A stretch of DNA of 32,000 nt from contig JAGVOT010000122.1 in NCBI GenBank assembly GCA_020052615.1, positions 1-32,000 of the forward strand, written 5' to 3'. How positions within the stretch are numbered: the stretch's first letter is position 1; each line of letters opens with the position of its first letter. The position numbers and the translations under genes are program-made. Below the pieces are notes generated by a model that saw only the letters and a program-made list of their open reading frames with translations, did not search any database and was not told the DNA's origin. The stretch is from Nitrospirota bacterium. Lineage in GTDB: Bacteria; Nitrospirota; UBA9217. Positions 4,415 to 23,192 of the stretch are shown in pieces.

Positions 4415-5350
4415 ATGCCATCAAAAAAGAAAACAAAGCCCGACCTCTCGGTGGACTTCGCCGGGATCAGGCTCAAGAACCCCGTGCTGACCGCGTCGGG
4501 GACCTTCGGGTACGGCGAGGAGTTTGCCGATATCATCGACCTGAACCGGCTGGGCGGCGTGATCGTCAAGGGTATTTCGCTCAAACCGATCACGGGCAAT
4601 CCGCCGCCGCGCATCTGGGAGACGCCGTCGGGCATGCTGAACGCCATCGGGCTCGAGAACCCGGGCGTGGACGTCTTTCTCCGGGACAAGCTTCCCTTCC
4701 TCCGGAACTATGATATCGCTGTCCTCGTGAACATATTCGGGTACTGCCTCGAGGACTACGTGGGCGTTGCCGAGCGGCTTGACGGCGTCCCCGGCGTGTC
4801 AGGCCTCGAGGTGAACATATCCTGCCCCAACGTGAAGGCCGGCGGCATCGTGTTCGGCACGGATCTCAAGGCGGCCTTCGAACTGCTCTCGGCGGTCCGC
4901 AAGGCCACCCGGCTGCCGGTCATCGCCAAGCTTTCTCCGAACGTGACGGACATCACCGCGTTCGCGAGAACGGCCCGCGACGCGGGGTGCGACGGGCTTT
5001 CGCTCATCAACACGCTCCTCGGCATGGCCATCGACATCCGGAGCAGACGGCCGAGGCTGGCGAACTGCACCGGGGGACTGTCGGGCCCGGCGATCCGGCC
5101 GGTCGCCGTTCGCATGGTCTGGCAGGCGGCAAAGGCGGTGGACCTCCCTCTCATCGGCATGGGCGGCATCATGACCCATGAGGACGCCCTCGAGTTCATC
5201 CTCGCGGGGGCGTCGGCCGTGGCCGTGGGGACGGCGAACTTCGTCAATCCCCGCGCGACACTGGACATCATCGGGGGCATGGAAGCCTTCCTCGTGCAGG
5301 AAGGCATCGGCAGCGTCAGGGAACTGGTGGGAAAGGTGTGCGTGGCATGA
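4415..5350 (+). CDS. pyrD: Dihydroorotate dehydrogenase, class 1B-like
   Basis: 311 aa; [73 protein letters not shown]-like motif, [12 protein letters not shown]. Confidence 0.96.
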
Positions 5351-6834
5351 GGTTCGTCTCGAGCCTGAAAAGCAAGATCATCCTGGCGGTGTCCGCGATC
5401 CTGGCGGTCATCATCGGGACCGGCACGTGGATCAACATCGGGTACCAGCGGTCCCAGATGGAGGGCGCCCTCGAGGACAACGTCCTGATCATTGCCAACA
5501 CGATCGAGAAGAGCCTGGACAACGCCATGCTTGACGGGAAGAGCAAGGAGGTGCAGCATATCCTCGAAGCCGTCGGGACCTATCATAATATCCAGGAGCT
5601 GAAGATCTTCAGCCCCAACGGCGTGATCCTGAAGGCCTCAAAGCCCGGTCTCATCGGCAGAAAAGTGGACGGCACGACCCAGAAGTGGTATCTCGAGGGC
5701 AAGTTCAAGCGGCCCATCAAGCGCCGCGACGAGGGCGTCTTCTCCGTGCTGTTCCCCATCGAGAACACGGAACGGTGCTTTCACTGTCACGGCTCCAAGG
5801 CGAAACTGAACGGCATCCTGTCCGTGGACGTGTCCATGGCGCAGACGCAGGCGAAGGTCGGCGAGCTCAGCAAGACCATGGTCCTCTGGGCCTTCGGCAT
5901 CACGGCGACGCTTGCCCTGTCGCTGGGCATGTTCCTGACCAGGTTCGTCACGAAGCCGATCCAGGACCTGATCGCCACCATGGAGCGTGCGGAGCGGGGG
6001 CTGGAGGCGCGGGTGCAGGTGAAGAGCTCCGACGACATCGGACGGCTGGGCGAGGCGTTCAATTCGCTCCTGTCCAAGCTGGAGCGGGCGCGCCGCCGCG
6101 TTGAACGGTATCATTACGAGCAGATGAAGAGGGCTGACCGCCTGGCGTCGATCGGCGAGATGGCGGCCGGCATCGCACACGAGATCAAGAACCCCCTTGC
6201 GGGCATTGCCGGCGTGATCCAGGTGCTGAAGAAGGACCTCCCGCCGGGGGAACCGAAGCGGGCCGTGCTGGACGAAGTGCTTTCCCAGGTGGAGCGCATG
6301 GACAAGGCCGTCCGAAACCTCCTGTCCTTCGCCCGGCCTCCGGAACCCAAGATGACCCTCGTGGATGTCAACGAACTCATCGCCAAACTGCTCGATTTTC
6401 TCGCTCCGCAGTTCGCGAAGCATGGGATCGCGGCGGAACGGAAGCTTAGCACGGGACTGCCCTGGCTCGCTCTGGACCCCGACCTGCTGCAGCAGGCCCT
6501 TCTGAACATCTCCCTGAACGCCATCAAGGCCATGCCCGAAGGAGGCAGCTTCTCCATTGAAACCCGGCTGGAACTGCCGGAAGGAACGGGTCAGGGCGCC
6601 ATCAGGATCATTTTCTCGGACACCGGCGAGGGGATCCTGCCGGAGAACCTGGGCAGAATATTCAGTCCGTTCTTTACGACGCGCCAACAGGGTACGGGGT
6701 TGGGACTGGCCATTACCCAGCGGATCGTCGAGCAGCATAATGGGGAGATCAGCGTGATGAGCACTCCGGGACGGGGGACTTCCTTCACGATCAGCCTCCC
6801 GTTGTCCGTGAGCGAGCAGGCACAAGGAGCGTAG
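5347..6834 (+). CDS. Membrane sensor histidine kinase (TM-sensor-TM-HAMP-HisKA-HATPase) with a CXXCH haem motif in the extracytoplasmic domain
   Basis: [15 protein letters not shown] just before TM2; HAMP; H-box [20 protein letters not shown]; N-box [14 protein letters not shown]; SDTGEGI; [13 protein letters not shown]. The supplied ORF starts at 5338; ATG at 5347 looks more natural. Confidence 0.94.
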
Positions 6835-6839
6835 GGACT

Positions 6840-8207
6840 ATGCCGCAGAAGATCCTGGTCATTGATGATGAAAAACTGATCCGCTGGACCCTGGAACAGC
6901 ACCTTGCAAAGGAAGGGTTCGAGGTGGTGACCGCGGATTCCGCGGAGAAGGGGCTCGAGATCATCAATGAGGATGCTCCGGACCTCATCCTTCTCGATAA
7001 CCGCCTGCCGGAGATGACGGGTCTCGAGCTCCTGGAGCAGTTGAATGTGCCGGAGCGGGGCCTCATGGTCATCATGATCACCGCGTACGGGCTTGTGGAA
7101 ACAGCGGTCAGGGCGATGAAACTGGGCGCCTACGACTACATCAGCAAACCCTTTAACCTCGAAGAGATCACCTTCGTGATCCGGAAGGCCATGGAGGCGG
7201 GGTCGCTCCGGTACCAGGTAAGGCAGCTGCGGGACAAGGTCAACACGATCATCGGAGAGAGCGACCAGATGGTGCAGGTGAAGAACCTCATCCTCAAGAT
7301 CGCCAAGAGCGACGCGACGACGGTGCTGATCCAGGGTGAAAGCGGTACGGGGAAGGAACTGGTGGCCAAGGCGATCCATTACAGCAGCGCACGGGCCGAC
7401 AAGCCGTTCATGGCCATCAACTGCGCGGCGCTGCCGGTCACGCTGCTGGAGACCGAGCTCATGGGCCATGAAAAGGGGGCGTTCACCGACGCCAAGGCGG
7501 CAAAGAAAGGGCTGTTCGAACTTGCCGACGGCGGCACCCTGTTCCTTGACGAGATCGGCGACATGGACCTGAGCATGCAGGCCAAACTTCTGCGTATTCT
7601 CGAAGAAAAGACCTTTCGCAGGGTAGGGGGGGTCAAGGATATCAAGGTGGATGTACGGGTCATTTCCGCAACGAACCAGGATCTTTCGACTACCCGGAGC
7701 GACATCCGGTTCCGGAAGGACCTCTACTACCGACTTCAGGTGGTCCCCATCCTTCTGCCGCCGCTGCGGGAGCGGGGACAGGATGCACTTCTTCTCGCAC
7801 GGCATTTCACCGATTATTTCAGCCGGGAATGCCACAAGAGCGTCAAGGGGATATCCAAGGACGTGGAGCGTGTGCTGCTGTCCTACCACTGGCCGGGGAA
7901 CGTGCGGGAGCTCAAGAACGTCATCGAGCGGGCCATGATCTTCGATGTCGAACAGGAGCTCCTTCCGGAGCACATTCCCCAGGAGATCATGGAGTCCGGG
8001 ACGGTACCGGTCGTGCATGCTGAATCTGCCATCTCGCTGGATTGTCTCGTCATACCCGAGACGGGGATATCCATTGAGGATGTCGAGCATGCCTTGGTCA
8101 AGAAGGCACTGCAGATGGCAGGAGACAATCAGACGCGTGCGGCTCAGCTGCTCAGGATGCCCCGCGACGCGTTCCGGCGGAGGATGAAGCGGTTTGGACT
8201 GATCTGA
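6840..8207 (+). CDS. NtrC-family sigma-54 dependent response regulator
   Basis: Receiver KILVIDDEKLIRWTLEQ...LILLDNRLPEMTG; AAA+ GESGTGKELVAKAIHYSS, GAFTDAKAAKKGLFELADGGTLFLDEIGD; C-terminal Fis-type HTH (AAQLLRMPRDAFRRRMKRF). Confidence 0.96.
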   Translation: MPQKILVIDDEKLIRWTLEQHLAKEGFEVVTADSAEKGLEIINEDAPDLILLDNRLPEMTGLELLEQLNVPERGLMVIMITAYGLVETAVRAMKLGAYDYISKPFNLEEITFVIRKAMEAGSLRYQVRQLRDKVNTIIGESDQMVQVKNLILKIAKSDATTVLIQGESGTGKELVAKAIHYSSARADKPFMAINCAALPVTLLETELMGHEKGAFTDAKAAKKGLFELADGGTLFLDEIGDMDLSMQAKLLRILEEKTFRRVGGVKDIKVDVRVISATNQDLSTTRSDIRFRKDLYYRLQVVPILLPPLRERGQDALLLARHFTDYFSRECHKSVKGISKDVERVLLSYHWPGNVRELKNVIERAMIFDVEQELLPEHIPQEIMESGTVPVVHAESAISLDCLVIPETGISIEDVEHALVKKALQMAGDNQTRAAQLLRMPRDAFRRRMKRFGLI

Positions 8208-8449
8208 GGGAGGTGAATGCCGTCGCAGGCACGTCCGCACGGCCGCTTGCTCAGCAGATCACTCTGGCATTTCCACCGGCATGACGAAACTACAAACAGA
8301 TCGATCCTCATTGATCTGTTATCTGTTCATCTCCCGATGATATATCGATGGATTCGCAGTCCCTTCCCTGGAACATCGAACACCGCGACGATCCCGCGCC
8401 ATACTTCCCGTCATGCAGTTTCTTGAAGGCTTCTGAAGACTCTCAAAAT

Positions 8450-8566
8450 GTCATTGCGAGGAGCGCTTTCGCTAGCCTGCCCCGGCATGGTTCAAGCAGG
8501 GGCGGCAATCTTGCAGGTATGGATTTCTTTCAAGCCGAGATTGCTTCGCTTTGCTCGCAAAGACGG
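8450..8566. repeat. Candidate dispersed non-coding repeat with degenerate inverted ends
   Basis: Begins GTCATTGCGAGGAGCG... and ends GAGATTGCTTCGCTTTGCTCGCAAAGAC, which reverse-complements to GTCTTTGCGAGCAAAGCGAAGCAATCTC. Confidence 0.55.
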
Positions 8567-8642
8567 CAATAGGACCTATATCGTGACCTGCTGCACAATC
8601 GTGTTCCGTTGCGCGTTCGCTTTAAAGAGGTCCGATGAAAGG

Positions 8643-9428
8643 TCAGTTCAGGTCGGGATGGCATCTTCTGCAATCCTGGATGGGGAAGGCGACGGTGAGG
8701 TGGCAGACGCCGCAGAATTTACCATTCTTGATGTAGTCCATGCGAAAGTGCTTGGTCCCTTTTTTCTGGATATTGAAGATGTCGGGATGGCAGTCGGCGC
8801 AGTCGAGCCATTCGGTGTGCTTCTGATGGGGGAACGAAGCACGCGTCTTGACCATGCGCCATTCCGGTTCAAGGCGGAGGTTCTTGTCAAAAGGGAGGGA
8901 CTCAAAATCCGGATTGAAGAGGCTCTGTTTTGGCTTGATAAGGCCAATTTTCAGGGCCTTGACCCAGTTGATCCGGTCTCCATACCGGGCCCTGGGAAAA
9001 TCCTGCAGCTCTTTGAACCGCGCGTCCGAGGAACCGACGTTGCCCGTATGGCAGGTCTTGCAGGTTTGTTCCGTTATCCCGAAGGCGATCTTGCCGTTAT
9101 GACACGCCCCGCAGTATTCGCCTTTCCGGATCTTCGCATCGGTCATGTCCGTGGCGTTCGTCTTCATCGCGAAGTTCAGTTCGAAATGGCATACGCGGCA
9201 GGTGAAACGCCGCCGGTGGACCCAGTGGGAAAAGGCCACCGGCGGGTGGGTGCTGCTGAACGTGAGCCTGCTGATGAGGACATTCCCGTACTGCGAGGGA
9301 GGAAGGAGCGCGGGAAGGCTCCAGACCGTGTCGAACTGGGTCCCCCGCACCGGTTCCCTGCTGTCGCTCATGCAGGAAAACGAACTTCCCGCAAGCAACA
9401 GGGCAAGGACAATGACTATCGTTCGCAT
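8643..9428 (-). CDS. Hexahaem c-type cytochrome, exported (paralogue of the 9482-10273 product)
   Basis: Six CXXCH: CRVCH, CGACH, CKTCH, CADCH, CGVCH, CRRCH. N-terminus MRTIVIVLALLLAGSSFSC; start moved to the internal ATG at 9428, with an AGGAA-type SD just upstream on the minus strand. Confidence 0.9.
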   Translation of the reverse strand: MRTIVIVLALLLAGSSFSCMSDSREPVRGTQFDTVWSLPALLPPSQYGNVLISRLTFSSTHPPVAFSHWVHRRRFTCRVCHFELNFAMKTNATDMTDAKIRKGEYCGACHNGKIAFGITEQTCKTCHTGNVGSSDARFKELQDFPRARYGDRINWVKALKIGLIKPKQSLFNPDFESLPFDKNLRLEPEWRMVKTRASFPHQKHTEWLDCADCHPDIFNIQKKGTKHFRMDYIKNGKFCGVCHLTVAFPIQDCRRCHPDLN

Positions 9429-9481
9429 GCGTTCCTTTGTTCGTGAGACCGCCTCTTCATGCCCGGAGTGTCCCGAATGGA

Positions 9482-10273
9482 TCAATAGACCTCTTTCAGA
9501 TGACAGAGCTGACAGTCATAGAACGGGAACGCGACCTTGGCGTGACAGCTGCCGCAATACTTGCCGGCGAAGATGTCCTGCATATTGTACTTGGTGGCGC
9601 CCTTCTTGGCTCCGAAGATCTCGGGATGGCAGAGTTCGCATCCGTTGATGTCGGCGTGGATCTTGTGGGAGAAGATGATGTCCGGCATGCCGAGGATCGT
9701 GGACTTGATGTCGAAGTCCTTTGGCCGGGGAATGTCCTGCCGCTTGATGGAAATTCCTTCGACCTGGTCGCTGAGCTTGATGAGGTTCTTGTCAGCGGCC
9801 TTCATCCAGTCGACCCGGTTGCCGAACCGTGCCGGCGGGAAGCCCTTCAGGAATTCGTTGAAATCCTTCTGGTTCTTCACGTCCTTGCCGTAGGAGTGGC
9901 AGCGTTCGCAGTTCTGGACCTCGGTTACCAGCTTTTCCCGCGTTGTGGGACCGAAGGCCTCTTTGCCGTTATGGCAAGACCCGCAGTACAGGTGGTTCGT
10001 GTTGTCGGCTTCCCTGATATCGCTGCCGCCGGCCTCCATTGCGAATCCGAGATCGACATGGCAGACCCTGCAGGTGTATTTGGCCCGATGGATCCAGTGT
10101 TTGAATACGACCGGCGCGATGTTGTTCTTCTCGGAATAGTTATTGATGATGACATTGCCGAACTCTTCGGGCCGCGGCATTCTCTTCTTCGTGCCGAAGC
10201 TGCTGGTGGCGGCGATGCCTATGGATGCGAACACGAACAACAGTAGAGCGATGATCAGGACTTTGCGATTCAT
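9482..10273 (-). CDS. Hexahaem c-type cytochrome, exported
   Basis: Six CXXCH: CRVCH, CGSCH, CERCH, CELCH, CGSCH, CQLCH. Signal peptide MNRKVLIIALLLFVFASIGIAA. Confidence 0.92.
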   Translation of the reverse strand: MNRKVLIIALLLFVFASIGIAATSSFGTKKRMPRPEEFGNVIINNYSEKNNIAPVVFKHWIHRAKYTCRVCHVDLGFAMEAGGSDIREADNTNHLYCGSCHNGKEAFGPTTREKLVTEVQNCERCHSYGKDVKNQKDFNEFLKGFPPARFGNRVDWMKAADKNLIKLSDQVEGISIKRQDIPRPKDFDIKSTILGMPDIIFSHKIHADINGCELCHPEIFGAKKGATKYNMQDIFAGKYCGSCHAKVAFPFYDCQLCHLKEVY

Positions 10274-10412
10274 TTTGTGGTTCTCCTTCCTAATTGCCTA
10301 ATTGGTGCGGCGTGATAACGTGAACACGATCAATTGTCGGGCAGGACGCTGGGGCCCGGCGCGCAGACTCCCGTGATGCGGATACGAAAATGCCTTATGC
10401 TCCTTTAAAAGA

Positions 10413-10549
10413 TCTTTGACACTGAAGACCCTGAGAACGGCTATGATAACTGCGGATACATCGATTCATTATCATGCCTCTTCATAAGAAGTCATCCGCC
10501 ACTTCTGTGTCAAAGAATCCAGGATCCTGATTTTCTTTGACACGGAAGA
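10413..10549. promoter_or_regulatory. Three-copy motif TCTTTGACACNGAAGA (10413-10428 direct, 10503-10517 inverted, 10533-10549 direct) that could form alternative hairpins
   Basis: 10503-10517 TTCTGTGTCAAAGAA and 10533-10547 TTCTTTGACACGGAA are complementary with one mismatch over 15 nt; the loop contains the palindrome CAGGATCCTG. 10413-10428 TCTTTGACACTGAAGA is a further direct copy. Confidence 0.55.
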
Positions 10550-10551
10550 TA

Positions 10552-12012
10552 CTATCGATGGCAGTGCTGGCACAGATCGGCGGGCTTTTCCGCCTTATAC
10601 CGGAAAAGGCCTTTCCAGTCGGAGCTGTGCGCATTATGGCAGCTGATGCAGGCCATGGTCCTGTTGGCGCGTTTCGGATCGTCCACCTTGTCGATCGGAT
10701 GGCCGGATTTCCCGCCTTTCGGCTTTACCTTGATGTCGCCGGGAAGGGGCGTGTCCGGGTGCTGGCCGTTGAACGCGCTGCTGTGGCACTTCCGGCACAT
10801 GTCATTGCCTTCGGCTTTCGCGAGGCCCTTGAACGGAGAGGTATGGTTGCCGTGGCAATCGAAGCATCTGCCGTCGGCGACGGGTTTGTGCACATACTTG
10901 CCCGTGAACCCTTCCGTGCTGTGGCACGTATAGCAGAGGTCGGGGGACTTCCCGATGAGGAGCTTCTGGGACTGGCTCTGATGGGACGAGTGACAACTGC
11001 TGCACATGCCGATCTTGAAAGGACCGTGCTTTTCCCTGCCCATGAGCTCTTCGTTCATATGGCATTCAAAACAGAGCCCCGGGGTAGATTTGGTCAGCAG
11101 GAACTTTGATTTCGCATTATGCGCCTTGTGGCACGTGGTGCACCGTCCGCCTGCAACGGGCTTGTGGCCGTATTTGCCGCCGGTGAAGGATTTTTTATCG
11201 TGGCATTTATAGCAGAGCTCAGGCTGCTTTGCCTGCAGGAGCTTTTCCGTCCGGGACTGGTGCGAACTGTGACAGGACAGGCAATTTCCCTGGGCAACGG
11301 GTTCGTGAATGATACCGCTTGTGTATGCATTCTTGTCGTGGCAGGTGTAGCAGAGCCCCGGCGATTCCGCGACGAGGAGGTCCTTTGCATTCTGCGAATG
11401 GGGATTGTGGCAGGCGGTGCACTTGCCCGAAATGACCGGCTGGTGCTGCATCGCGGTCTTGTCGGCGATGCTCGCCCGGTCATGGCATCTGAAGCACAAC
11501 TCGGGCATGTTGAACGTCAGCAGCTTCTCATTGTTGTCCGAGCTGTGCGCGTCGTGGCAGAACCCGCACAGGGCGGCAGCGGTCGGGAAGTGGATGTTCT
11601 TCCTGGCCGAGATGTTCTTGTCGTGGCACTTGTAGCAGAGATCGGGCATGGCGGTGCTGAGCAGGCGGACGTTGTTGGAGGAATGCGGGTTGTGGCAGCC
11701 GGTGCATTTCCCCGTGGTTACCGGTTTGTGCTGGTAGCGCCTCAGGAACAGCGACCTGCTGTGGCAATCATAACAGAGGTCGGGCTGTTCGGACTTGAGG
11801 GAGAGAACGCCCTTGTTCGTGCCTCCCGCATGGGGCGCGACATGGCAGACACCGCAGCCTTTTTTCATGGCCCCGTGCAGCACCCTGCCTTTGCTCATTG
11901 CCTGGTGGCACTTGTTGCAGTCCTCATCGGCAGCGAAGGCGACCTCCGCGAACAGGAGCATTGCGGCAGCGCAGAGGAACGCTGATACTATCGGAAGGTT
12001 CTTGAAGTTCAT
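10552..12012 (-). CDS. Multihaem c-type cytochrome with 19 CXXCH motifs (doubled-CXXCH repeat type), exported
   Basis: Signal peptide MNFKNLPIVSAFLCAAAMLLFAEVAFA; 19 CXXCH counted, arranged in repeats of the form LCYxCHxxx...HxPVxxGxCxxCHxxHxS. The supplied ORF starts at a GTG (12033); ATG at 12012 gives a cleaner signal peptide. Confidence 0.95.
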   Translation of the reverse strand: MNFKNLPIVSAFLCAAAMLLFAEVAFAADEDCNKCHQAMSKGRVLHGAMKKGCGVCHVAPHAGGTNKGVLSLKSEQPDLCYDCHSRSLFLRRYQHKPVTTGKCTGCHNPHSSNNVRLLSTAMPDLCYKCHDKNISARKNIHFPTAAALCGFCHDAHSSDNNEKLLTFNMPELCFRCHDRASIADKTAMQHQPVISGKCTACHNPHSQNAKDLLVAESPGLCYTCHDKNAYTSGIIHEPVAQGNCLSCHSSHQSRTEKLLQAKQPELCYKCHDKKSFTGGKYGHKPVAGGRCTTCHKAHNAKSKFLLTKSTPGLCFECHMNEELMGREKHGPFKIGMCSSCHSSHQSQSQKLLIGKSPDLCYTCHSTEGFTGKYVHKPVADGRCFDCHGNHTSPFKGLAKAEGNDMCRKCHSSAFNGQHPDTPLPGDIKVKPKGGKSGHPIDKVDDPKRANRTMACISCHNAHSSDWKGLFRYKAEKPADLCQHCHR

Positions 12013-12054
12013 AGGTTTTGTCCGAAAAGCCACGAAAGTCTATCAGAATATACG

Positions 12055-12087
12055 AAAAAAATCAAATGGTTCGCCCGATCATTTGAT
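12055..12087 (-). terminator. Candidate rho-independent terminator overlapping the stop codon of the TPR gene
   Basis: Minus strand reads ATCAAATG-atcgggcgaac-CATTTGAT-TTTTTTCG: perfect 8-bp stem followed by a T run. Confidence 0.5.
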
Positions 12088-13377
12088 CTGCTTGATGAAC
12101 TGCTTCAACTCAGCGTCGTTGGGAGCTATCTTGAGCGCCCTTTCCCATGTCTCGCGGGCCTTGTCCTTCTTCCCGATCGCGTAGTAGCCCGAGCCCAGGC
12201 GTTTCCAGGCGAGAATATTGTCGGGCTGAAGTTCGATGACGATCGTGCACTCCTGGATCGCAAGGTCGTATCTTCCTTCATAGATGTGGTTCAAGGCGGC
12301 AAAGAGGTACTGGTCGACGATGTTCATGTCGCCGACCGGCGCTTCCATGGTGCTCAGGATCGACACATACTTGAGCTCAAGAAAGCCTTTGACGGCGATG
12401 GTGAGCGAGGACGGGTTCAGCTGGAATGCGTACCAGGCTCCCGCCATCGAAGCCTTGCGGTTGCCGTCAGCGGCGATATAGTTGCTCATTGCTTTCCGCA
12501 TCATGTCGCCGGCCTGGCCCTTTTCATCGATCCTGAGCGCGACCTTGACGACATCGTCGAGGCGAGAGAGCATGGTCTTGACATCGATATCGGTCGGGTT
12601 GTCGGAGAGGATCTTGTTGTAATAGTCCCGCGCGATGATGTAGTCGCCCCGCTCGTAGGCCTGCCTCGCTTCGGCGTAAGTCGTTCCCATCTTCTCTTTC
12701 ACAGCGGATGCGATATAGCGCGATGCGGCTTCCTGCGACCCGTCGATCTCCAGGATCTTCCTCCATTCGGCAATGGCAAGATCGTATTTCTTTTCCTTCA
12801 TGTATGCATCTGCCTGGTCGTAATGCTTCTTGGTGCGCACATCGACGACGTTGCTCTTTGCATTGTTGTACAGACTGCGGGCCTTGCCGTCATAGGGCCG
12901 GACCACGAGGATCTTTTCCAGCTCGTTCAATGCCGACTTGTAGTCGCCATCCTTGATGAACTGCTCGGCGTGCTGGTACATCTCGTTGGTGGTCTTGTCG
13001 GTGATGAGGTTCTTGGTGATGTCGATCAGGTTCGCGAAGCGCCGGTCATCGGGGTTCATCTTCAGAAGCTTGTCCCAGACCTCGATCGCCGCCGCGTAAT
13101 TCTCGTTCTGAAAGGCCTCGGCGGCGTCCTTGCAGAAGGGCTCCATGACCTGCTGTCTGGCGATGGCCTGGTACCGGGAAGCTGTCTTGTCAAAGGGATC
13201 GATCGCCAGGATCTCGTTCAGGAGCGGGCCCGCCTGATCGAACTTGCCCTCTTTGAAAAGGACGACGACCTCTTTCTTGAGCTGTTCGATCCGTTCAAGC
13301 TGCTTCGGTGTGACAGCGTCCGCCCCGGTTGCGACGGCGAGAACGAGTATTGTGATAAGTGTAAGGAAGTTTTTCAC
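12079..13377 (-). CDS. Exported TPR-repeat protein
   Basis: 432 aa; signal peptide MKNFLTLITILVLAVATGADA; repeated helical units such as DGDYKSALNELEKILVVRPYDGKA, KKYDLAIAEWRKILEIDG, RGDYIIARDYYNKILSDNPTD, EGRYDLAIQECTIVIELQPDNILAWKRLGSGYYAIGKKDKARETWERALKIAP. ATGA overlap with the upstream gene. Confidence 0.85.
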   Translation of the reverse strand: MKNFLTLITILVLAVATGADAVTPKQLERIEQLKKEVVVLFKEGKFDQAGPLLNEILAIDPFDKTASRYQAIARQQVMEPFCKDAAEAFQNENYAAAIEVWDKLLKMNPDDRRFANLIDITKNLITDKTTNEMYQHAEQFIKDGDYKSALNELEKILVVRPYDGKARSLYNNAKSNVVDVRTKKHYDQADAYMKEKKYDLAIAEWRKILEIDGSQEAASRYIASAVKEKMGTTYAEARQAYERGDYIIARDYYNKILSDNPTDIDVKTMLSRLDDVVKVALRIDEKGQAGDMMRKAMSNYIAADGNRKASMAGAWYAFQLNPSSLTIAVKGFLELKYVSILSTMEAPVGDMNIVDQYLFAALNHIYEGRYDLAIQECTIVIELQPDNILAWKRLGSGYYAIGKKDKARETWERALKIAPNDAELKQFIKQIK

Positions 13378-14039
13378 CCGTTTGCCCCTCTGACGATGGT
13401 GATTTCGATGCGCCGGTTCTTTGCCCGCTCTGCGTCGGTCTCGTTCGACGCAGCAGGCCTGAACTCTCCGAGCCCATGGGCGACAAGCCGCTCAGGGGCA
13501 ATGCCCTTGTTGATGAAATAGTAAATGACGCTGAAGGCCCTCGCAGACGACAGTTCCCAGTTTGAATCATACTGAGCGGTGTGTATGGGTATATTGTCCG
13601 TATGCCCTTCGGCGATGACCCTGTTGCTCATGGGTTTCAGCTGTCCGTGCAGATGTTCCAGAAAGGCCCCGATCCCCGGTTTCAGCTCGGCGCTGCCGCT
13701 GTCGAAGAGCGCAAAGCTCTCCATCTTGATCTTGATGTGGTGCGGGGTGATGACGAGCTGGATATTGTCGGTCATCCTGTTCTTTTCGATGAAGTCCCGG
13801 ATGTTCTGCGCCAGCGCGATCTCCTGTTTCATCTGCTTCACCCGCGGATCGTTCGGATTCGTCTCGGCAAGGTCGGAGAGCGCGGTCTCGTATTCCACGG
13901 AACCGGAATAGGAAAAGGCGTAGAACATGATGAAGAGGATGACCAGCGTGAGCATGAGGGTGCTGTAGGGCAGCATCCACAGCTCGGTCTCTTCCAGGTG
14001 CTCTTCGGTGTATTGTACGAACTTCCGGAGTACCGACAT
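13374..14039 (-). CDS. MotB/OmpA-like membrane protein lacking the canonical channel Asp
   Basis: N-terminal TM helix WMLPYSTLMLTLVILFIMFYAFS; OmpA-like domain FALFDSGSAELKPG...AEGHTDNIP...NWELSSARAFSVIYYF...KNRRIEITIV. Confidence 0.88.
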   Translation of the reverse strand: MSVLRKFVQYTEEHLEETELWMLPYSTLMLTLVILFIMFYAFSYSGSVEYETALSDLAETNPNDPRVKQMKQEIALAQNIRDFIEKNRMTDNIQLVITPHHIKIKMESFALFDSGSAELKPGIGAFLEHLHGQLKPMSNRVIAEGHTDNIPIHTAQYDSNWELSSARAFSVIYYFINKGIAPERLVAHGLGEFRPAASNETDAERAKNRRIEITIVRGANG

Positions 14040-14716
14040 TACAGCGTGCTCCTCGCCTGGCGGACCAGGGTGATTTCGATGCGCCGGTTCCGGGCCCGAT
14101 TCACGTCCGAGTCGTTGGGATATGCCGGGTGGAACTCACCGTACCCTGCTGCCACGAGCTGCCCGGGGTCCATGCCGGAGGCGGTGAAAAAATTGACGAC
14201 GCCGACAGCCCGTGCGATGGACAGTTCCCAGTTGGAACGGTACGCGCCTCCGCGGACCGGGATCGCGTCCGTGTGGCCTTCGATGATGATGTCGTTGGGG
14301 AACGCCTCGATCAATCCAACGAGGCTTTCCAGGACATTGACCGTGCCGGGATTGAGCCTGGCGCTTCCGATGGAAAAGAACGTTTCGGGATTCAGGGCGA
14401 TCTTGACGGTCTTGTCCGTTACCGCGATGGTCGCCTTCCCGGAAAGTTGCCCATCCGAGGCCGCCTGCTCGATGCGCTTGATCGCCGCTTCTTCCCTTGC
14501 CATCTTCGCCTGGCGCTCCAGTTCGGCCTGCTCCCGCGCCGATTGGTTGACCACCGTGCTTTCCATGCCGGCGACCACCATCTGCTTTTCCACGGCGGTC
14601 ATGCGCGTCATGGAGAACAGCATAAGGAAGAACAGCATGAGGTTGGTCGTAATATCGGAAAAGATGATCAGCCAGATATTGCCGAACTCTTTCCTTTTTT
14701 CAGTCTGTGCATGCAT
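14039..14716 (-). CDS. MotB/OmpA-like membrane protein retaining the channel Asp
   Basis: N-terminal TM helix WLIIFSDITTNLMLFFLMLFSM with Asp21 in the MotB position; OmpA-like domain FFSIGSARLNPG...IEGHTDAIPVRGG...SNWELSIARAVGVV...RNRRIEITLV. Confidence 0.9.
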   Translation of the reverse strand: MHAQTEKRKEFGNIWLIIFSDITTNLMLFFLMLFSMTRMTAVEKQMVVAGMESTVVNQSAREQAELERQAKMAREEAAIKRIEQAASDGQLSGKATIAVTDKTVKIALNPETFFSIGSARLNPGTVNVLESLVGLIEAFPNDIIIEGHTDAIPVRGGAYRSNWELSIARAVGVVNFFTASGMDPGQLVAAGYGEFHPAYPNDSDVNRARNRRIEITLVRQARSTL

Positions 14717-14748
14717 GCCCGTGTCCGATCCCGTGTAGCTTCTTCCGG

Positions 14749-15519
14749 CTACTTCTGCCGAATATGCGCCATGATGAAAGCGGTCAGTTTCTTCCTCAGG
14801 ATGAGGGGGACGTCGCCCTGCTGGATCGACATGACGCCTTCAGCGATCATCTCCTTGCTGATGATGTCCCGCTCGCTGTGGTCGGTGAGCTTCGTCGCGA
14901 TCGGGATGAAGACGTTCGCCGAGAAGATCCCGTAAAAGGTCGCCGTGACGGCATTGGACATCGCGGCGCCCATGCTGGCGGGATTGGAAAGGTTCCTCAG
15001 CATTTCCACAATGCCCATGAGCGTGCCGAGAAGTCCGAAGATGGGGGCGACCGTGGCCATGGTCCGGAAGGCCCCTGAGACCTTTTGCTGATTGTGGCGG
15101 GTATAGAATATCTCGCGGCCGAGATTGTCCTTGATGACGTCGTGTTCAAGACCGTCAACGAGCATCTGGACGCCATGGACAAGGAATTTGTCCTCCATTT
15201 TCGGTATCTCGGCGGAAAGGGTCTCGATGCCGTCACGACGCGCCTTTTCGGCAAGCGAGGCAAGGTAATCGATCTTGTCCTCCATGTCCTTGTCGGAGTG
15301 CTTGCTGGGGAACAGCATGATGCGCAGGGACGGAATGATCTCCCGCACGACCGACCAGGGATAGGCTATCAGGGTAGCGCTGAACGTGCCGCCGTAGACA
15401 ATGACGAGCGCCAGGGGATTGAACAGCATGTGCAGGATGTTGCCTACCGCCAGAACATACAGGATCGTCAGCAGGATCGCGACGAGCCCGACAATTGTCA
15501 TTTTATCCATTTTTTCCAT
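14749..15519 (-). CDS. MotA-family stator-like proton channel protein
   Basis: MEKMDKMTIVGLVAILLTILYVLAVG..NPLALVIVYGGTFSATLIAYP; cytoplasmic EKARRDGIETLSAEI; VAPIFGLLGTLMGIVEML; TATFYGIFSANVFIPIATKL. Start placed at ATG 15519. Confidence 0.9.
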   Translation of the reverse strand: MEKMDKMTIVGLVAILLTILYVLAVGNILHMLFNPLALVIVYGGTFSATLIAYPWSVVREIIPSLRIMLFPSKHSDKDMEDKIDYLASLAEKARRDGIETLSAEIPKMEDKFLVHGVQMLVDGLEHDVIKDNLGREIFYTRHNQQKVSGAFRTMATVAPIFGLLGTLMGIVEMLRNLSNPASMGAAMSNAVTATFYGIFSANVFIPIATKLTDHSERDIISKEMIAEGVMSIQQGDVPLILRKKLTAFIMAHIRQK

Positions 15520-15520
15520 G

Positions 15521-16942
15521 TTAGTTGTTTTCAACCTCCACAAGGCCTTCGTTGATCAGGCGGCGTACCACGACCATCAGGTTCTGTTTCTCCCGCCGGA
15601 GACGTGTTGCTGAGAGGGGACGGCTGAATTCCATCTCCTGCTTGAGCCGCTCGGCGGCACCGGCGCTCAAGGATGAGAGGACCTTCTGCTGGATGTCCTC
15701 GGAAGAGGTCTTCAGGATCTGGGCGAAGAGCGCGGCCTCGACGTTCCGGGTGAGCGTCTGGATGCCCTGTGCCGGAAGGTCGCGGATGATGTTCTCCAGG
15801 CTCCTGATGCGCTGCTTCAGGCGCGCGGCGGTGGGGGCGTCCTTCGCCTCGAGCGTCTTGACGATCTTCTCGCGGACCTCCTCGTTGGTCATATCGAGCA
15901 GCGTGACCAGCTTGTTTTCGCCGCCCACGACGTAGGTGAGCTTGTTCTTGACCATCTCTTCGAGGGCGGTAACCTTCTCGACGCTGATCTCTTCCTTGCC
16001 GAGGGATATCGCGACCTCGACCTGCTTCTCCTTCGGGAAAAGCTCGAGGAACCGCATGGCAAGGACGGGGTCAAGGTAGTTTGTCACGATCGCAATGTCC
16101 TGCGCCGCCTTGTCCTTCAGGAGGAACGCGAGGCCAGGGAGGTCGCGCTCGCGAACGAAGGAGAAGGGAAGCCCCGCTTCCTGCGCGGAGACGGCTGCGG
16201 CGGCCGCAACCGCGCTGCCTGCCATGACCTCCCGCTCATAGGTCGAGGTATGCTCCACGTTGACGGTCTGTGCCGTAGCACCTCCGCCCCGGATGGCGCT
16301 CCAGTCGATCTCCTTGAGGGCCGGGATCACTTTCTTAAGCGGATCCATCAGGAACAGTCCGGCCATGACCATCATGAAGCCGCCAACGATGGTCAGGATC
16401 AGCCACAGGAAGTTCGGAAGTGCGAAGAGCGTTCGGAAAAAGCCCTTTGATTCGAAGTCAACTTTCTTTACGTTGATCTGGTCGCCCCGGGTCTGGCTGA
16501 ATCCGATCACGTTCTTCGCCATGTCCTCGATAAGTTCCACGATCGACCCCGGAACGCTGCTGTCGATCCAGATGGAAAGGGTGATCTTGTTGACCCGGTA
16601 CTTGCTGCTCCCGGCGCCGAACAACATCTCGGACTGCCCGGCGCCGAACTCCTTCTTTTGCGGAACGCCGGGGAGCACCAGCGCGTTCGTCTTCTTTTTT
16701 TCGAGAAGCTGGTCGCTGCCGCCTCGCGCGGACACCAGCTCGGCATTCACAAAGATGACGACCTTGTCCGTACCGGTTATTTCCTGGATGACCTGTTTGA
16801 GCTTGCGTTCAAGCTGGCTCTCCAGGGAGATCTTGAGAGCATAATCATCATTTACCTCGGCGTGCGACACCGGGACGGCCGTGAGAAGAATAAACATGAC
16901 GAGAAGAAGCAGGAGTGGACTGCGAGTGATTGTTCGAACCAT
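15521..16942 (-). CDS. Exported/membrane FliF(C-terminal)-FliG(M+C) fusion protein
   Basis: Signal peptide MVRTITRSPLLLLLVMFILLTAVPVSHA; FliF/YscJ C-terminal-like segment (LESQLERKLKQVIQEITGTDKVVIFVNAEL...LPGVPQKK...YRVNKITLSIWIDSS...IVELIEDMAKNVIGFSQTRGDQINVKKVDF); TM FLWLILTIVGGFMMVMAGLFLM; then FliG-like PFSFVRERDLPGLAFLLKDKAAQDIAIVTNYLDP...VGGENKLVTLLDM...IRSLENIIRDLPAQGIQTLTRNVEAALFAQILKTSSEDIQQKVLSSLSAGAAERLKQEME...VVVRRLINEGLVEV. Confidence 0.88.
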   Translation of the reverse strand: MVRTITRSPLLLLLVMFILLTAVPVSHAEVNDDYALKISLESQLERKLKQVIQEITGTDKVVIFVNAELVSARGGSDQLLEKKKTNALVLPGVPQKKEFGAGQSEMLFGAGSSKYRVNKITLSIWIDSSVPGSIVELIEDMAKNVIGFSQTRGDQINVKKVDFESKGFFRTLFALPNFLWLILTIVGGFMMVMAGLFLMDPLKKVIPALKEIDWSAIRGGGATAQTVNVEHTSTYEREVMAGSAVAAAAAVSAQEAGLPFSFVRERDLPGLAFLLKDKAAQDIAIVTNYLDPVLAMRFLELFPKEKQVEVAISLGKEEISVEKVTALEEMVKNKLTYVVGGENKLVTLLDMTNEEVREKIVKTLEAKDAPTAARLKQRIRSLENIIRDLPAQGIQTLTRNVEAALFAQILKTSSEDIQQKVLSSLSAGAAERLKQEMEFSRPLSATRLRREKQNLMVVVRRLINEGLVEVENN

Positions 16943-17232
16943 GTTTGTATCCCCTATTAAATTAATTATTGAAAATGGAACGATGTCGGCAAGGGCGATT
17001 GTCGATCAAGCGTCAATTTTGCAACCAGAATATCGATGCAATATATGTACCTGTAGTTTCACACTAATAATTGTTGGATGTGATATTCAAGTATGTGAAA
17101 AATAAGAATTAATTAAAAAATAATTTGCGCCTCTATGGGATTTAACAAATATTTAACCGAGCGAATGTGCTCACCCGGTGCTTGTTAGTGCTCTCTAATG
17201 TTTACGAGTAAGCGTCCCAAATTAGCACAGTG

Positions 17233-17381: not shown

Positions 17382-19022
17382 ATGAAAAAAATAGCGATGA
17401 TCGTTATGGGTTTGTTCATTCTGTTGACCGTCGGCGGCGCAAATGCAGCGACAAGCAGGAAGGCAACTCCCAAGGACAAGGCGCCGGCAGTCAAGGACAG
17501 GAGCGCGGCGGGTGCTCCCGCAAAAGCGGAGAAGACGTCTGTGCCTCTCAACGAGCGTTATACCGACAAGGGCGACGGCACGATCCTTGACAAGAACACC
17601 GGCCTGATCTGGCTCAAAGATGCCAATATCAGCAATCTGCCCCTGCCCGGCGAGGGCGCAAAGCAGTATCTTCAGGAAATGAACAGCGGAAAAAAACCGA
17701 ATTTCGGCTACTCCGATTGGCGCCTGCCGACCATCAATGAGATCGAGACGCTCGTGGAGAAATCCCGGTTCTATCCGGCGCTTCCGGTCGGCCACCCGTT
17801 CACGAATGTGCAGAACCATTTCTACTGGTCGTCGTCGACGGGGAAAGATGTTCTCGATTACGTATGGATCGTGGACCTGGCATCGGGCGAGATGACCATG
17901 GACTATGTTTCCTATTGCAGTTACAAGTTCCTCTGGCCGGTCAGGAGCAGCTGGATGCCGACGACCGCCAAGGCGAGCACCGTCATGACCGGCGGCCTGA
18001 ACGAATTCGGCCAGCTCGGCGACGGCTCCACGGGGGACCGGGACGCATTCCTGCCGGTAAGCGGCCTGGAGAACGTGGTCAAGGTCTCCGCGGGCCTTGA
18101 ACATGCCGTGGCGCTCAAGTCAGACGGGTCTGTTTGGACGTGGGGACGGAACAACCGGGGCCAGCTGGGGAACGGCACCGTCGAAGACAGCCGGGTGCCG
18201 GTCGCTGCCAAGGACCTCTGGAGGATCACCGATGTCGCGGCGGGCATGTTCCATACGCTCGCACTTGCGTCCGATGGAACGGTCTGGGCCTGGGGGCGTA
18301 ATTCCTACGGACAGCTCGGGAACGGATCCAACGAGGACAGCATAACACCGGTGCGGGTCAGCGGTCTGTCGGGCGTCGTGAAGATCTCCGCGGGGATGTA
18401 TCACTCGGTCGCGGTCAGGTCCGACGGATCGGTCCATGCCTGGGGCAGGAACGTGTACGGTCAGCTTGGCGACGGCTCGAACAAGGACCGGAACAGTGCA
18501 GGTCAGGTTTCCGGGATATCGGGAGCCGTGAACGTCACTGCGGGGCTTCATCATACGGTGGTCCTGAGATCCGATAAGACCGTCTGGGCATGGGGCTGGA
18601 ATATCAACGGCATGCTCGGTGACGGGACGGGAACCGATCAGTTCAAGCCGGTGCAGGTCAAGGGCCTTGCCGACATCGTGGACATCCAGGCGGGACTGCA
18701 TCACACCATTGCGCTCAGGTCCGATGGGAGCGTCTGGACATGGGGGGGGAACGAATACAGCCAGCTTGGCAACAAGTCGGCAAGCGGATCAACGGCGATC
18801 AAGATCGATGGCTTGGGGAACATCAAGAAGGTATCGGCGGGAATGTACCACTCCATCGCTGTGATGACGGACGGTACGATCTGGGTATGGGGCAAGGACC
18901 TGAAGAACCAGCCGTTGAAACCCTATCCCGTACGGATATGGGATGTTGCCGGGATAAACGATGTCGCTGCCGGACGGTTCTATACGGTCGTGTTGAGCGG
19001 CGGAAAATCTGCCGTGCAGTGA
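17382..19022 (+). CDS. Exported protein with N-terminal DUF1566-like domain fused to a 7-repeat RCC1-type beta-propeller
   Basis: Signal peptide MKKIAMIVMGLFILLTVGGANA; YTDKGDGTILDKNTGLIWLKDA...GYSDWRLPTINEIETLV...HFYWSSS..YVWIVDLASGEM...FLWPVR; seven units of the type VSAGxxHxVALxSDGSVWTWGxNxxGQLGxG. SD GGGAAGGGA upstream. Confidence 0.92.
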   Translation: MKKIAMIVMGLFILLTVGGANAATSRKATPKDKAPAVKDRSAAGAPAKAEKTSVPLNERYTDKGDGTILDKNTGLIWLKDANISNLPLPGEGAKQYLQEMNSGKKPNFGYSDWRLPTINEIETLVEKSRFYPALPVGHPFTNVQNHFYWSSSTGKDVLDYVWIVDLASGEMTMDYVSYCSYKFLWPVRSSWMPTTAKASTVMTGGLNEFGQLGDGSTGDRDAFLPVSGLENVVKVSAGLEHAVALKSDGSVWTWGRNNRGQLGNGTVEDSRVPVAAKDLWRITDVAAGMFHTLALASDGTVWAWGRNSYGQLGNGSNEDSITPVRVSGLSGVVKISAGMYHSVAVRSDGSVHAWGRNVYGQLGDGSNKDRNSAGQVSGISGAVNVTAGLHHTVVLRSDKTVWAWGWNINGMLGDGTGTDQFKPVQVKGLADIVDIQAGLHHTIALRSDGSVWTWGGNEYSQLGNKSASGSTAIKIDGLGNIKKVSAGMYHSIAVMTDGTIWVWGKDLKNQPLKPYPVRIWDVAGINDVAAGRFYTVVLSGGKSAVQ

Positions 19023-19601: not shown

Positions 19602-19723
19602 ATTAGTTCATAAAATCATGTAGTTATGCTTGATATCCCTATGTTGCAGGAGGCATGTTTATTGCAATTAAATGATAACTACCTGTTGTTATTTCACCTT
19701 GAACATCAAGGAGTTAAACGAAT

Positions 19724-21079
19724 ATGAGGAAACAAAATGCGTTGGGAACGATCTCTCTGGTAGGATTGATCGGATTCCTGCTCATCATTTTTGCTTTTCC
19801 CGGCCATGGCACGTCCCAGACGCCGGCTCCTGCTTCGGAGAGCTGCGTCAGCGCAAATTGTCACGTCACCATGGGCAAGGAGAAGGTCGTCCATAATCCC
19901 GTAAAGGAAGGCATGTGCACGACCTGCCATCTTGCCGCGGATGATCCTCTCAAGAAGACCAGGCATCCAGGCAATCTTGTCATCTCCCTCGTGCAGCCGG
20001 TGGCGGACCTTTGCACAATGTGTCATGAGCCAAAGAACAAGAAAAAGGTCGTCCATGCGCCGATCCAGGGGGGGGATTGTACGTCCTGTCATAACCCTCA
20101 TCAGTCGCCGAACAAAGGCATGCTGAAGGACGTCATGCCGAATATCTGTTTTCAGTGTCATCCGGACAGCATGGTGAAGCATGCCGTCATGCACCCGCCG
20201 GTGGCGGGAGGGGATTGCTCGGGTTGTCATGACAATCATCAGAGCGATTTTCCCAAACGGCTGGTCAATGAGGGGAACGCCCTCTGTTTCCAGTGTCATC
20301 CCGATAAGGAAGAGGGCCTCAAGACCAGGAAGGTAGCCCACTATCCCGTCAAGCAGTCCTGCACCCAGTGCCACAATCCCCATGGATCGTCCGCGAAGGC
20401 CATGCTCACCGCACCGGTACCGGAGCTTTGTTCAACCTGTCATCCGAACGAAGTGATGCTGCGTCAACGGGCCGCCACCAAGCACGGGCCCATGGCCGAT
20501 CAAAAGAGCTGCCGCATCTGTCATGATCCGCATTTCTCCGATCAGCCGCGGCTTCTCGTCACCTCGCAGATGGCGCTGTGTCTTGCCTGTCATGACAAGG
20601 AGCTCGAGACCGGCAAGGGCAAGGTCATGAACATGAAGGCGTTTCTCGAGGCGAACAAGAACACCCATGGCCCTCTGAAGGGCGACGATTGTGTTTCATG
20701 CCATAATCCGCACGGCTCGGACTACTGGAGGATCCTGGTGAAGTATTATCCCCCGGATTTCTATGCGTCCTACTCCGAGGGGAAGTATGCACTGTGTTTC
20801 TCCTGCCACGATAAGGCGGCATTCACGGAGCGGCGCACGAAAACGGCCACGGGCTTCCGTGATGGTGAACAGAACCTCCATTTCGTTCACGTGAACAAGG
20901 TCAACAAGGGGAGGACGTGCAAAGCCTGTCACGAGGTGCACGCGGACAGCGGACAGAATGCACATGTGAAACAATTCGTTGGATTCAGCGGGTGGGCGAT
21001 GCCCATGAACTTCACGCAGGGCAAGGACGGCGGGACCTGTGCGCCGGGGTGTCATGGGGAAAAACGGTACAACAGGTAA
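19724..21079 (+). CDS. Multihaem c-type cytochrome: 13 CX2CH plus one CX4CH and one CX3CH
   Basis: N-terminal hydrophobic segment LGTISLVGLIGFLLIIFAF; first motif CVSANCH (CX4CH), last motif CAPGCH (CX3CH), 13 canonical CXXCH between them (CTTCH, CTMCH, CTSCH, CFQCH, CSGCH, CFQCH, CTQCH, CSTCH, CRICH, CLACH, CVSCH, CFSCH, CKACH). Confidence 0.94.
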   Translation: MRKQNALGTISLVGLIGFLLIIFAFPGHGTSQTPAPASESCVSANCHVTMGKEKVVHNPVKEGMCTTCHLAADDPLKKTRHPGNLVISLVQPVADLCTMCHEPKNKKKVVHAPIQGGDCTSCHNPHQSPNKGMLKDVMPNICFQCHPDSMVKHAVMHPPVAGGDCSGCHDNHQSDFPKRLVNEGNALCFQCHPDKEEGLKTRKVAHYPVKQSCTQCHNPHGSSAKAMLTAPVPELCSTCHPNEVMLRQRAATKHGPMADQKSCRICHDPHFSDQPRLLVTSQMALCLACHDKELETGKGKVMNMKAFLEANKNTHGPLKGDDCVSCHNPHGSDYWRILVKYYPPDFYASYSEGKYALCFSCHDKAAFTERRTKTATGFRDGEQNLHFVHVNKVNKGRTCKACHEVHADSGQNAHVKQFVGFSGWAMPMNFTQGKDGGTCAPGCHGEKRYNR

Positions 21080-21162
21080 ACGGCGTTTGGCGGTCCTGTC
21101 CAGGCAGGAAAGAATACGTGGGTCCTAATAACAGCGCAGCAGACCGATGTCGGGGGAATAAT

Positions 21163-23124: not shown

Positions 23125-23192
23125 TATGCCAACGATGAGGTTTTTGTGGTATACTAATTCCTTGTTGTAGCAAACAACCCTGTTGACTTGAT

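Follow-up and report, generated by a model that had tools for sequence, protein, structure and literature searches.

In a 32,000-nucleotide stretch of DNA from a Nitrospirota bacterium (GenBank assembly GCA_020052615.1, contig JAGVOT010000122.1; hereafter "the window"), five tightly packed minus-strand genes (positions 16942-12079) encode a protein in which parts of FliF and FliG are fused, a MotA, two MotBs and an exported protein made of tetratricopeptide repeats (TPR). It is considered probable that this set constitutes a free-standing, non-flagellar rotor-stator machine, derived from the flagellar torque core or sharing ancestry with it. The five genes recur together in 78 loci of Nitrospirota, Elusimicrobiota and other lineages, and since the same set is found in dozens of independent contigs the locus lies far beyond chance; to judge from the sequences, the module is real, functional and widespread.

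The eight minus-strand open reading frames (ORFs) described in the initial annotation of the window, namely the five motor genes and three genes for multihaem cytochromes, were all found where it had placed them (Table 1), and a re-reading of the sequence left its gene junctions unchanged. The fusion and MotA genes are separated by 1 nt (TAA-C-ATG), MotA and MotB1 by 32 nt, whereas MotB1 and MotB2 overlap by 1 nt (TAATG) and the stop of MotB2 overlaps the start of the TPR gene by 4 nt (GTGA); the gene of the 19-haem cytochrome starts 45 nt further on. That the motor genes form one tight and conserved unit is borne out by the recurrence of the set elsewhere. Domains were called in the window from matches above Pfam's own gathering cut-offs, and the families that the initial annotation had proposed to look for (YscJ_FliF_C, FliG_M, FliG_C, MotA, OmpA and paired CXXCH) were all matched; the parts fit its picture of an ion-driven stator, a membrane-anchored FliG-like protein and peptidoglycan-anchored MotB arms. 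Likewise in agreement with it, none of the remaining large ORFs in the window, when scanned with Pfam, showed a domain of FliM, FliN, the rod, the hook, the filament or the export gate. N-termini resembling signal peptides were read by eye on the fusion, the TPR protein and all three cytochromes. Rfam and tRNA scans of the window returned no matches.

The fusion protein matches YscJ_FliF_C at residues 113-163, FliG_M at 271-338 and FliG_C at 363-468, and its parts follow one another in the order signal peptide, RBM3-like ring-building domain with a short collar-like insert, one transmembrane helix, disordered linker, FliG_M (beginning at residue 259) and FliG_C. FliG_N, RBM1 and RBM2 are all missing, as indicated by Pfam, by alignment and by an AlphaFold2 model; the periplasmic part, of about 140 residues, holds a single RBM fold that resembles RBM3 and S-ring structures. 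The model, built on 25 family members and having a mean pLDDT of 69, opens with a hydrophobic helix at the N-terminus; then come a periplasmic domain of the order alpha-beta-[disordered 73-112]-beta-alpha-beta, a long transmembrane helix (177-210), a disordered linker and the helical middle and C-terminal domains of FliG. In a Foldseek comparison of this model with the PDB, structures of FliG middle and C-terminal domains rank first (E down to 3e-10) and are followed by more than 12 FliF MS-ring, RBM3 or S-ring structures (E ~1e-4, target TM-score <=0.58). Since a profile search of PDB sequences matched the FliG half only and gave no FliF match, the FliF assignment rests on Pfam and Foldseek.

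Family alignments show that the disordered insert occupies the position of the FliF beta-collar and carries an invariant LPGVPxKKE as well as an equally invariant RGD, and a conserved small-x-Ala before residue 29 suggests that the signal peptide is cleaved. The beginning of FliG_M, PFSFVR, is nearly identical to that of Thermotoga maritima FliG; alignment with the latter protein reveals that the FliM-binding EHPQ is replaced by KAAQ (within LLKDKAAQDIA) and the MFXF hinge (MFVF) by RSLE, and the loss of both therefore suggests a motor without a switch. Among R281, D288, D289 and R297 of the torque helix only the position of D289 is kept, in the form of Glu436, which is invariant across 25 fusion sequences. 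Against the FliG equivalog TIGR00207 the fusion scores 80.7 bits (cut-off 226.7), the M and C domains alone being matched. Because of the AlphaFold2 model, the Foldseek matches and the Thermotoga FliG alignment, the protein is best described as a minimal FliF, reduced to RBM3, joined covalently to a FliG that has no N domain and apparently makes no provision for a FliM/FliN switch.

As for the stator, flagellar MotA and PomA are the nearest solved relatives of the MotA of the window (E 4e-41 to 1e-22 in a PDB search), its match to TolQ reaching only E 3e-4. Its scores stay under the NCBIfam equivalog cut-offs (178 vs 340), which makes it a divergent member of the flagellar stators. In alignments whose columns were set by means of a PomA sequence, in accord with a HMMER alignment, all family members have R or K at the equivalent of MotA R90 (E. 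coli numbering), whereas the equivalent of E98 is S, A, Q or D in Nitrospirota and E in Elusimicrobiota. MotB1 and MotB2 each match MotB_plug and OmpA and both keep the OmpA-type peptidoglycan-binding motif; the channel Asp is replaced by Thr in the MotB2 of all Nitrospirota members, and this change is a Nitrospirota feature. In a neighbour-joining tree (computed with no bootstrap values) first-position MotBs form one group and second-position MotBs another across both phyla, so that the two-MotB composition looks older than the split of the lineages. A MotB1/MotB2 heterodimer would be the simplest reading of these sequences.

The 78 loci were gathered through a word-indexed protein search, a one-genome-per-species scan, a metagenome scan and look-ups of the encoding contigs. 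When 1.84 billion cluster representatives were searched exhaustively with a profile of the fusion, 280 matched at E <1e-30; about 130 of the best 150 of these 280 span the whole profile, have lengths of 430-800 aa and are mutually diverged. The names returned by cluster look-ups of the relatives were only Nitrospirota, Elusimicrobiota and "bacterium BMS3Abin07", taxonomy being known for few members, and word-indexed searches with mixed or divergent alignments, in which close Nitrospirota matches dominate, added few relatives and no further phylum. The module has so far been seen in uncultivated lineages only.

The gene order in Nitrospirota is fusion, MotA, MotB1, MotB2 and TPR, usually with a divergent upstream gene for an exported protein having Lcl_C and RCC1 domains, which lies beside the module in most Nitrospirota loci. 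In Elusimicrobiota, where the fusion is 22-25% identical to that of the window, the order is a PorV/PorQ-like barrel, a TPR protein with LysM, the fusion, MotA, two MotBs and a Cache-HAMP-PAS histidine kinase, the TPR gene thus being upstream of the fusion, unlike in Nitrospirota. In other lineages some fusions gain C-terminal cytoplasmic TPRs, and in one locus (L076) genes for a kinase and a Kelch propeller lie downstream of the module. Neither FliM nor FliN nor any structural or export gene of a flagellum occurs in the Pfam-listed 10-kb flanks of the relatives, the only flagellar-family gene in any of these flanks being an flbD (8267-9370) in locus L077, where it is directly upstream of a motA that lies 4.5 kb away. 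Pairwise dN/dS values against four relatives are 0.05-0.26 for all nine genes of the cluster, indicating purifying selection, and residues of both the periplasmic and the cytoplasmic domains are invariant in the fusion family. In the long contigs of L017, L022 and L001/L025 the fusion, MotA, TPR or RCC1 genes are broken up, the breaks being probably indel errors of assembly and not marks of pseudogenes.

The fifth gene, for the exported TPR protein, is conserved with the module in both phyla. A PDB search with the protein found generic or designed TPR proteins only. A barrel of the PorV/PorQ (UPF0164) family is encoded directly upstream of the LysM-carrying TPR protein in about 15 Elusimicrobiota-type loci (e.g., L028 7849-9991) and is fused to the TPR protein in three others (L072 3501-6065, L073 8407-9972, L077 525-2105); a barrel next to or fused with the TPR protein hints at an envelope-spanning role, to which LysM would add a hold on peptidoglycan. 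Two further observations concern the same surroundings. Genes with C-terminal sorting domains of the type IX secretion system (T9SS) lie near the module in L026, L052, L072 and L073, with a weaker case in L076. In three loci distant from one another, L007 (2548-3057), L019 (6617-7321) and L074 (8865-9482), a gene for a lytic transglycosylase (SLT) is found a few kb upstream of the module, which might fit the needs of a wall-spanning assembly but might also be due to chance.

The three genes that follow the TPR gene in the window encode proteins with 19, 6 and 6 CXXCH motifs. The first passes TIGR03508 of the DmsE family (195.5 bits vs a cut-off of 192.2) and each 6-haem cytochrome contains two "nanowire_3heme" triheme domains (TIGR04257); no porin was recognised beside them in the window, and no pilin motif within it. 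In a scan for sigma-70 promoters and terminators, uninformative overall, no terminator-like site was seen between the TPR and 19-haem genes. The gap of 278 nt between the 19-haem and the first 6-haem gene (10274-10551) has a weak sigma-70-like site at 10495-10468 of the minus strand and may hold an internal promoter.

The initial annotation had proposed that the motor is coupled to these cytochromes, a claim that, as far as gene neighbourhood goes, is borne out in part of the Nitrospirota and not beyond them. A census covered 23 distinct Nitrospirota loci with enough flank and 34 loci of Elusimicrobiota and other lineages. The 19/6/6 triad follows the TPR gene directly, with gaps of 5-109 nt, in 15 of the 23, and in a sixteenth (L018) it has moved upstream of the RCC1 gene and is still adjacent to the module; it is missing in the remaining seven (L001, L005, L006, L019, L020, L022 and L048), of which L001 and L022 are close relatives of the window. 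Since the triad is kept in branches in which the fusion is 41-47% identical to that of the window and the outer flanks differ (L007 and L075, at 46-47%, and L018), the link probably exceeds inherited synteny; on the other hand, L007 has the triad and L019 does not, although their upstream flanks are alike, so that the triad comes or goes in loci that retain the module. An ORF with at least four CXXCH motifs is found in none of the 34 other loci, all of which keep the five genes. In view of these 34 loci and of the seven Nitrospirota loci, the cytochromes are a clade-specific companion and not a defining part of the module, although in the lineage of the window they are probably co-transcribed with it. 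Thus, of the two outcomes that the initial annotation had named as fatal to the coupling, one did not occur, as the fusion, MotA and MotB are not found beside flagellar structural genes in the flanks examined, whereas the other did, as the cytochromes are not generally conserved beside the module.

In three sister Nitrospirota loci the slot after the TPR gene is filled by pilC/gspF, a GspG-like gene, four or five pilins and a TPR membrane protein of 660 aa. The motor genes of these loci occupy the place where pilB and pilT often lie. No GspE/PilB Walker-A motif was found across loci L001-L071, the 10-kb flanks of the pilC/pilin loci included.

Co-regulation of the motor and of the neighbouring cytochrome operons by sigma-54 is a reasonable inference from motifs in the upstream sequences. 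The motif GGTACATATATTGCA ahead of the fusion gene stands out as a conserved island amid diverged upstream regions in 8 of 13 members of the clade of the window, and a second motif, GGCATGTTTATTGCA, recurs in six other related loci. In this clade the cluster has a sensor histidine kinase and an NtrC-type regulator beside it, and the two have remained there in L017 in spite of a rearrangement. The 13-haem gene, the OmpA/8-haem gene and the two NHL genes of the neighbouring operon move as a block in the same clade. The other genes of the window are carB, greA, pyrK and pyrD on the upstream side, and those for Kup, a GGDEF protein and RmuC on the far side.

Table 1. Positions of the motor module, its companions and candidate control elements (window positions unless a locus is named)
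Feature	Position	Strand	Basis and remarks
FliF(RBM3)-FliG(M+C) fusion	15521-16942	minus	473 aa; Pfam, AlphaFold2, Foldseek, alignments
MotA/PomA-type stator A subunit	14749-15519	minus	256 aa; Pfam MotA_N and MotA_ExbB
MotB paralogue 1: plug, transmembrane helix with channel Asp (FSD), OmpA-like peptidoglycan-binding domain	14039-14716	minus	Pfam
MotB paralogue 2: architecture as MotB1, Thr (YST) for Asp, OmpA-like domain intact	13374-14039	minus	Pfam
Exported TPR protein, fifth core gene	12079-13377	minus	432 aa; Pfam TPR repeats, many TPR families
19-haem periplasmic cytochrome, DmsE/MtrA type, lineage-specific accessory	10552-12033	minus	nine paired-CXXCH units (Pfam)
6-haem cytochrome, two c7-type triheme domains	9482-10273	minus	Pfam, NCBIfam TIGR04257
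Second 6-haem cytochrome, two c7-type triheme domains	8643-9485	minus	Pfam, TIGR04257; likely true start ATG at 9428
Sigma-54-type motif GGTACATATATTGCA (GGTAC-N5-TTGCA)	17037-17051	minus	exact sigma-54 spacing; ~95 nt upstream of fusion ATG
Second sigma-54-type motif GGCATGTTTATTGCA (GGCAT-N5-TTGCA)	19652-19666	plus	58 nt before 13-haem gene start at 19724
Sensor histidine kinase	5338-6834	plus	Pfam
NtrC-type sigma-54 activator	6840-8207	plus	Pfam; candidate regulator pair with kinase
Divergent exported protein: Lcl_C lectin-like domain and RCC1 beta-propeller	17382-19022	plus	Pfam
Neighbouring cytochrome operon, possibly co-regulated	19652-25231	plus	motif, 13-haem, OmpA-like/8-haem and two NHL-propeller genes
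13-haem cytochrome	19724-21079	plus	
OmpA-like peptidoglycan-binding domain (aa 381-476) and eight C-terminal haem motifs in one ORF	20917-23124	plus	
Two NHL-propeller genes	23193-25231	plus	
pilC/pilin block after TPR in sister loci	L005 11146-17594; L006 14936-21401; L048 15049-21419		

The operation of such a machine can be pictured from its homologies. The fusion would oligomerise via its RBM3 domain into a membrane ring; stator units of MotA5B2 type, probably built in Nitrospirota on MotB1/MotB2 heterodimers with a single working Asp, would be anchored to the wall and conduct ions via the Asp of MotB1, and the conserved Arg of MotA would push on the invariant Glu436 of the FliG_C torque helix and make the ring turn, presumably without switching, the FliM-binding EHPQ and the MFXF hinge being lost. 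More speculatively, the periplasmic ring and the TPR protein could hand the work to a lineage-specific client in the periplasm or outer membrane, the most likely clients in the lineage of the window being the probably co-transcribed multihaem cytochromes, the divergent Lcl_C/RCC1 surface protein, or both, and the neighbouring kinase and regulator may control the whole set through sigma-54; alternatively, the TPR protein might serve only as a stator scaffold, as do PflA and PflB in Campylobacterota. A wider and decidedly tentative proposal is that the module represents an unrecognised class of envelope machine, in which a FliF-RBM3/FliG ring would be turned by wall-anchored MotAB stators without a flagellum and the torque, passed through the periplasmic face and the TPR protein or barrel, would secrete, move or position clients (the cytochromes or the Lcl_C/RCC1 adhesin here, pseudopilins or PorV-dependent cargo elsewhere), the machine itself being either a reduced and reused flagellar motor or a surviving pre-flagellar relative.

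Several points weigh against a rotor-stator machine of this kind. Three of the four charged residues by which E. coli FliG contacts MotA are changed in the fusion (R281->G, D288->Q, R297->S) and the equivalent of MotA E98 is Ser in the window, so that the rotor-stator interface is altered. The fusion of L073 has no adjacent MotA or MotB. The AlphaFold2 model of the fusion is only moderately confident, its collar-like insert being disordered; ring formation, rotation and any output would follow from homology alone; and no axial or output component was identified among the module loci. Furthermore, because the accessory genes (cytochromes, pilins, PorV-like barrel, kinases) vary by lineage, no single client can be named.

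The idea of the initial annotation leads to a rival reading, in which the motor would be a dedicated cytochrome machine that assembles, inserts, gates or moves a multihaem conduit and is tied to extracellular electron transfer. Such a reading, which we regard as unlikely, draws on the operon-like gaps with which the triad follows the TPR gene in 15 Nitrospirota loci and on its adjacency, though rearranged, in L018, on the persistence of the association at 41-47% fusion identity within different outer flanks, on the lack of a terminator-like site ahead of the 19-haem gene and on the presence nearby of a second cytochrome operon, both operons having conserved sigma-54-type motifs. It is opposed by the absence of the triad from seven Nitrospirota loci, close relatives of the window included, and by the 34 loci of Elusimicrobiota and other lineages that keep the five genes without a multihaem gene; moreover, the cytochromes are of ordinary periplasmic types (DmsE/MtrA-like and c7 triheme) with no filament-forming signature, and in sister Nitrospirota their slot is taken by pilC and pilins. 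Quite unlikely, in our opinion, is a sensory or regulatory device in which stator engagement, or the flow of ions through a small dummy rotor, reports the state of the envelope, the load or the ion-motive force to a two-component system. In every Elusimicrobiota-type locus of sufficient length the gene directly after the second MotB is indeed that of a Cache-HAMP-PAS histidine kinase, a HAMP kinase has the same position in L076, response regulators lie beside the fusion in L073 and L074, the kinase and NtrC-type regulator remain with the cluster in the clade of the window even where it is rearranged, and the lack of an identified output component would also be in keeping with a sensor. However, the kinases are not orthologous between lineages and are absent from five Nitrospirota loci (L005, L006, L007, L019 and L075), so that they may simply regulate expression, and a ring-building domain, two wall-anchored MotBs and a TPR/outer-membrane partner would be heavy equipment for sensing.

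All motor parts are of flagellar type by sequence, some Nitrospirota are flagellated and flbD adjoins motA in L077, all of which could point to an accessory of a true flagellum encoded elsewhere, for instance additional stators together with a rotor protein of a specialised kind. This is nevertheless very unlikely: the fusion possesses its own ring-building domain and transmembrane helix and has neither FliG_N nor the FliM-binding EHPQ, so that it cannot replace FliG on a FliF ring; no flagellar structural or export gene lies in any examined flank; and the Elusimicrobia described are not known to be flagellated. The last rival takes the module for a decaying, functionless residue of flagellar genes that were otherwise lost. 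Few of the flagellar parts are indeed encoded, but the frames are intact, dN/dS is low in all genes, gene order and fused architecture are conserved across two phyla, and invariant residues are found on both sides of the membrane; the remnant reading is extremely improbable and was rejected on these grounds.

The free-standing rotor-stator machine, which remains the preferred reading, shares with the flagellar torque core (FliF MS-ring, FliG, MotA5B2/PomA5B2) RBM3, FliG_M and FliG_C, an A subunit of PomA/MotA type, a MotB with plug, channel Asp and OmpA-like anchor, and apparently a charge pair of the R90-D289 type. It differs from the flagellar motor in being devoid of RBM1, RBM2 and FliG_N, in having no FliM, FliN, export-gate, rod, hook or filament genes nearby, in uniting FliF and FliG in one polypeptide from which EHPQ and MFXF are lost, and in possessing two MotBs, one of them without the Asp, and a dedicated TPR partner. 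To our knowledge, FliG/FliF-type rotors are known solely as flagellar parts, and 5:2 ion-driven motors that serve other ends (Ton, Tol, gliding, type IX secretion, Zorya) operate without a FliG/FliF-type ring. No description of the five-gene module was found in the literature searched; the initial annotation, too, had known of no system of such composition. According to a survey of MotAB homologues from 2025, stators of flagellar type fall into a single flagellar clade (PMC12505986), and a survey of flagellar gene loss says of rotor proteins without filaments that they "could have an alternative function", and no more.

Among natural proteins the closest precedent is a FliF-FliG fusion that Bergeron described in Chlamydiaceae (2016, PeerJ, PMC4768692), likewise a short FliF-like membrane protein with a C-terminal FliG-derived cytoplasmic domain in a non-flagellated setting; it differs in keeping RBM2 and another RBM and in having FliG_M only, with no FliG_C and no MotAB partner, and is linked to the type III secretion system (PMC4768692). 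Fusions of FliF to FliG that were engineered or arose spontaneously in Salmonella and Vibrio show that covalent fusions can form rings (PMC10941966, PMC11481574; PDB 8z4d, which is among the sequence matches of the fusion of the window); these join full-length FliF to full-length FliG within a complete flagellum, whereas the fusion described here is natural, truncated and stand-alone. As for the TPR protein, PflA and PflB are periplasmic TPR scaffolds that place MotB-containing stators around the rotor of Campylobacterota flagellar motors (PMC12054838), but they belong to complete flagella and no specific homology to the TPR protein of the module is detectable, the matches being generic.

GldLM/PorLM, AglRQS, ExbBD, TolQR and ZorAB resemble the module inasmuch as an ion-driven unit of A5B2 type energises an envelope process other than swimming, and AglRQS, of Myxococcus gliding, also combines one A with two B subunits; however, none of GldLM, AglRQS, ExbBD, TolQR and ZorAB has a rotor ring of FliG/FliF type, and the MotA of the module is of flagellar type as opposed to the ExbB/TolQ type of the Ton/Tol motors. 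Three identities among these systems were rejected for the locus: Tol-Pal/Ton, in view of the faint TolQ match (E 3e-4) and of B subunits that are of MotB type with OmpA domains; Zorya, as PADLOC gave no ZorA match for MotA, no ZorC or ZorD, and ZorB matches weaker than those to flagellar MotB; and type IX secretion or gliding, there being no GldL, GldM, PorV, SprA or sorting-domain cargo in the window. The T9SS likeness is confined to some distant relatives, in which PorV-like barrels and sorting-domain cargo genes adjoin the module. The cytochromes, finally, recall Mtr/Pcc-type systems in that the 19-haem protein scores just above the DmsE-family cut-off and each 6-haem protein consists of triheme domains of c7 type, the difference being that no porin gene was identified beside the cytochromes of the window; we know of no Mtr/Pcc-type cytochrome system with motor proteins.

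The module provides a concrete object with which to test whether the generation of torque can exist apart from type III export and what else a membrane ring can drive. In addition, it may offer a lead into the handling of multihaem cytochromes by the uncultivated Nitrospirota of groundwater and sediment.

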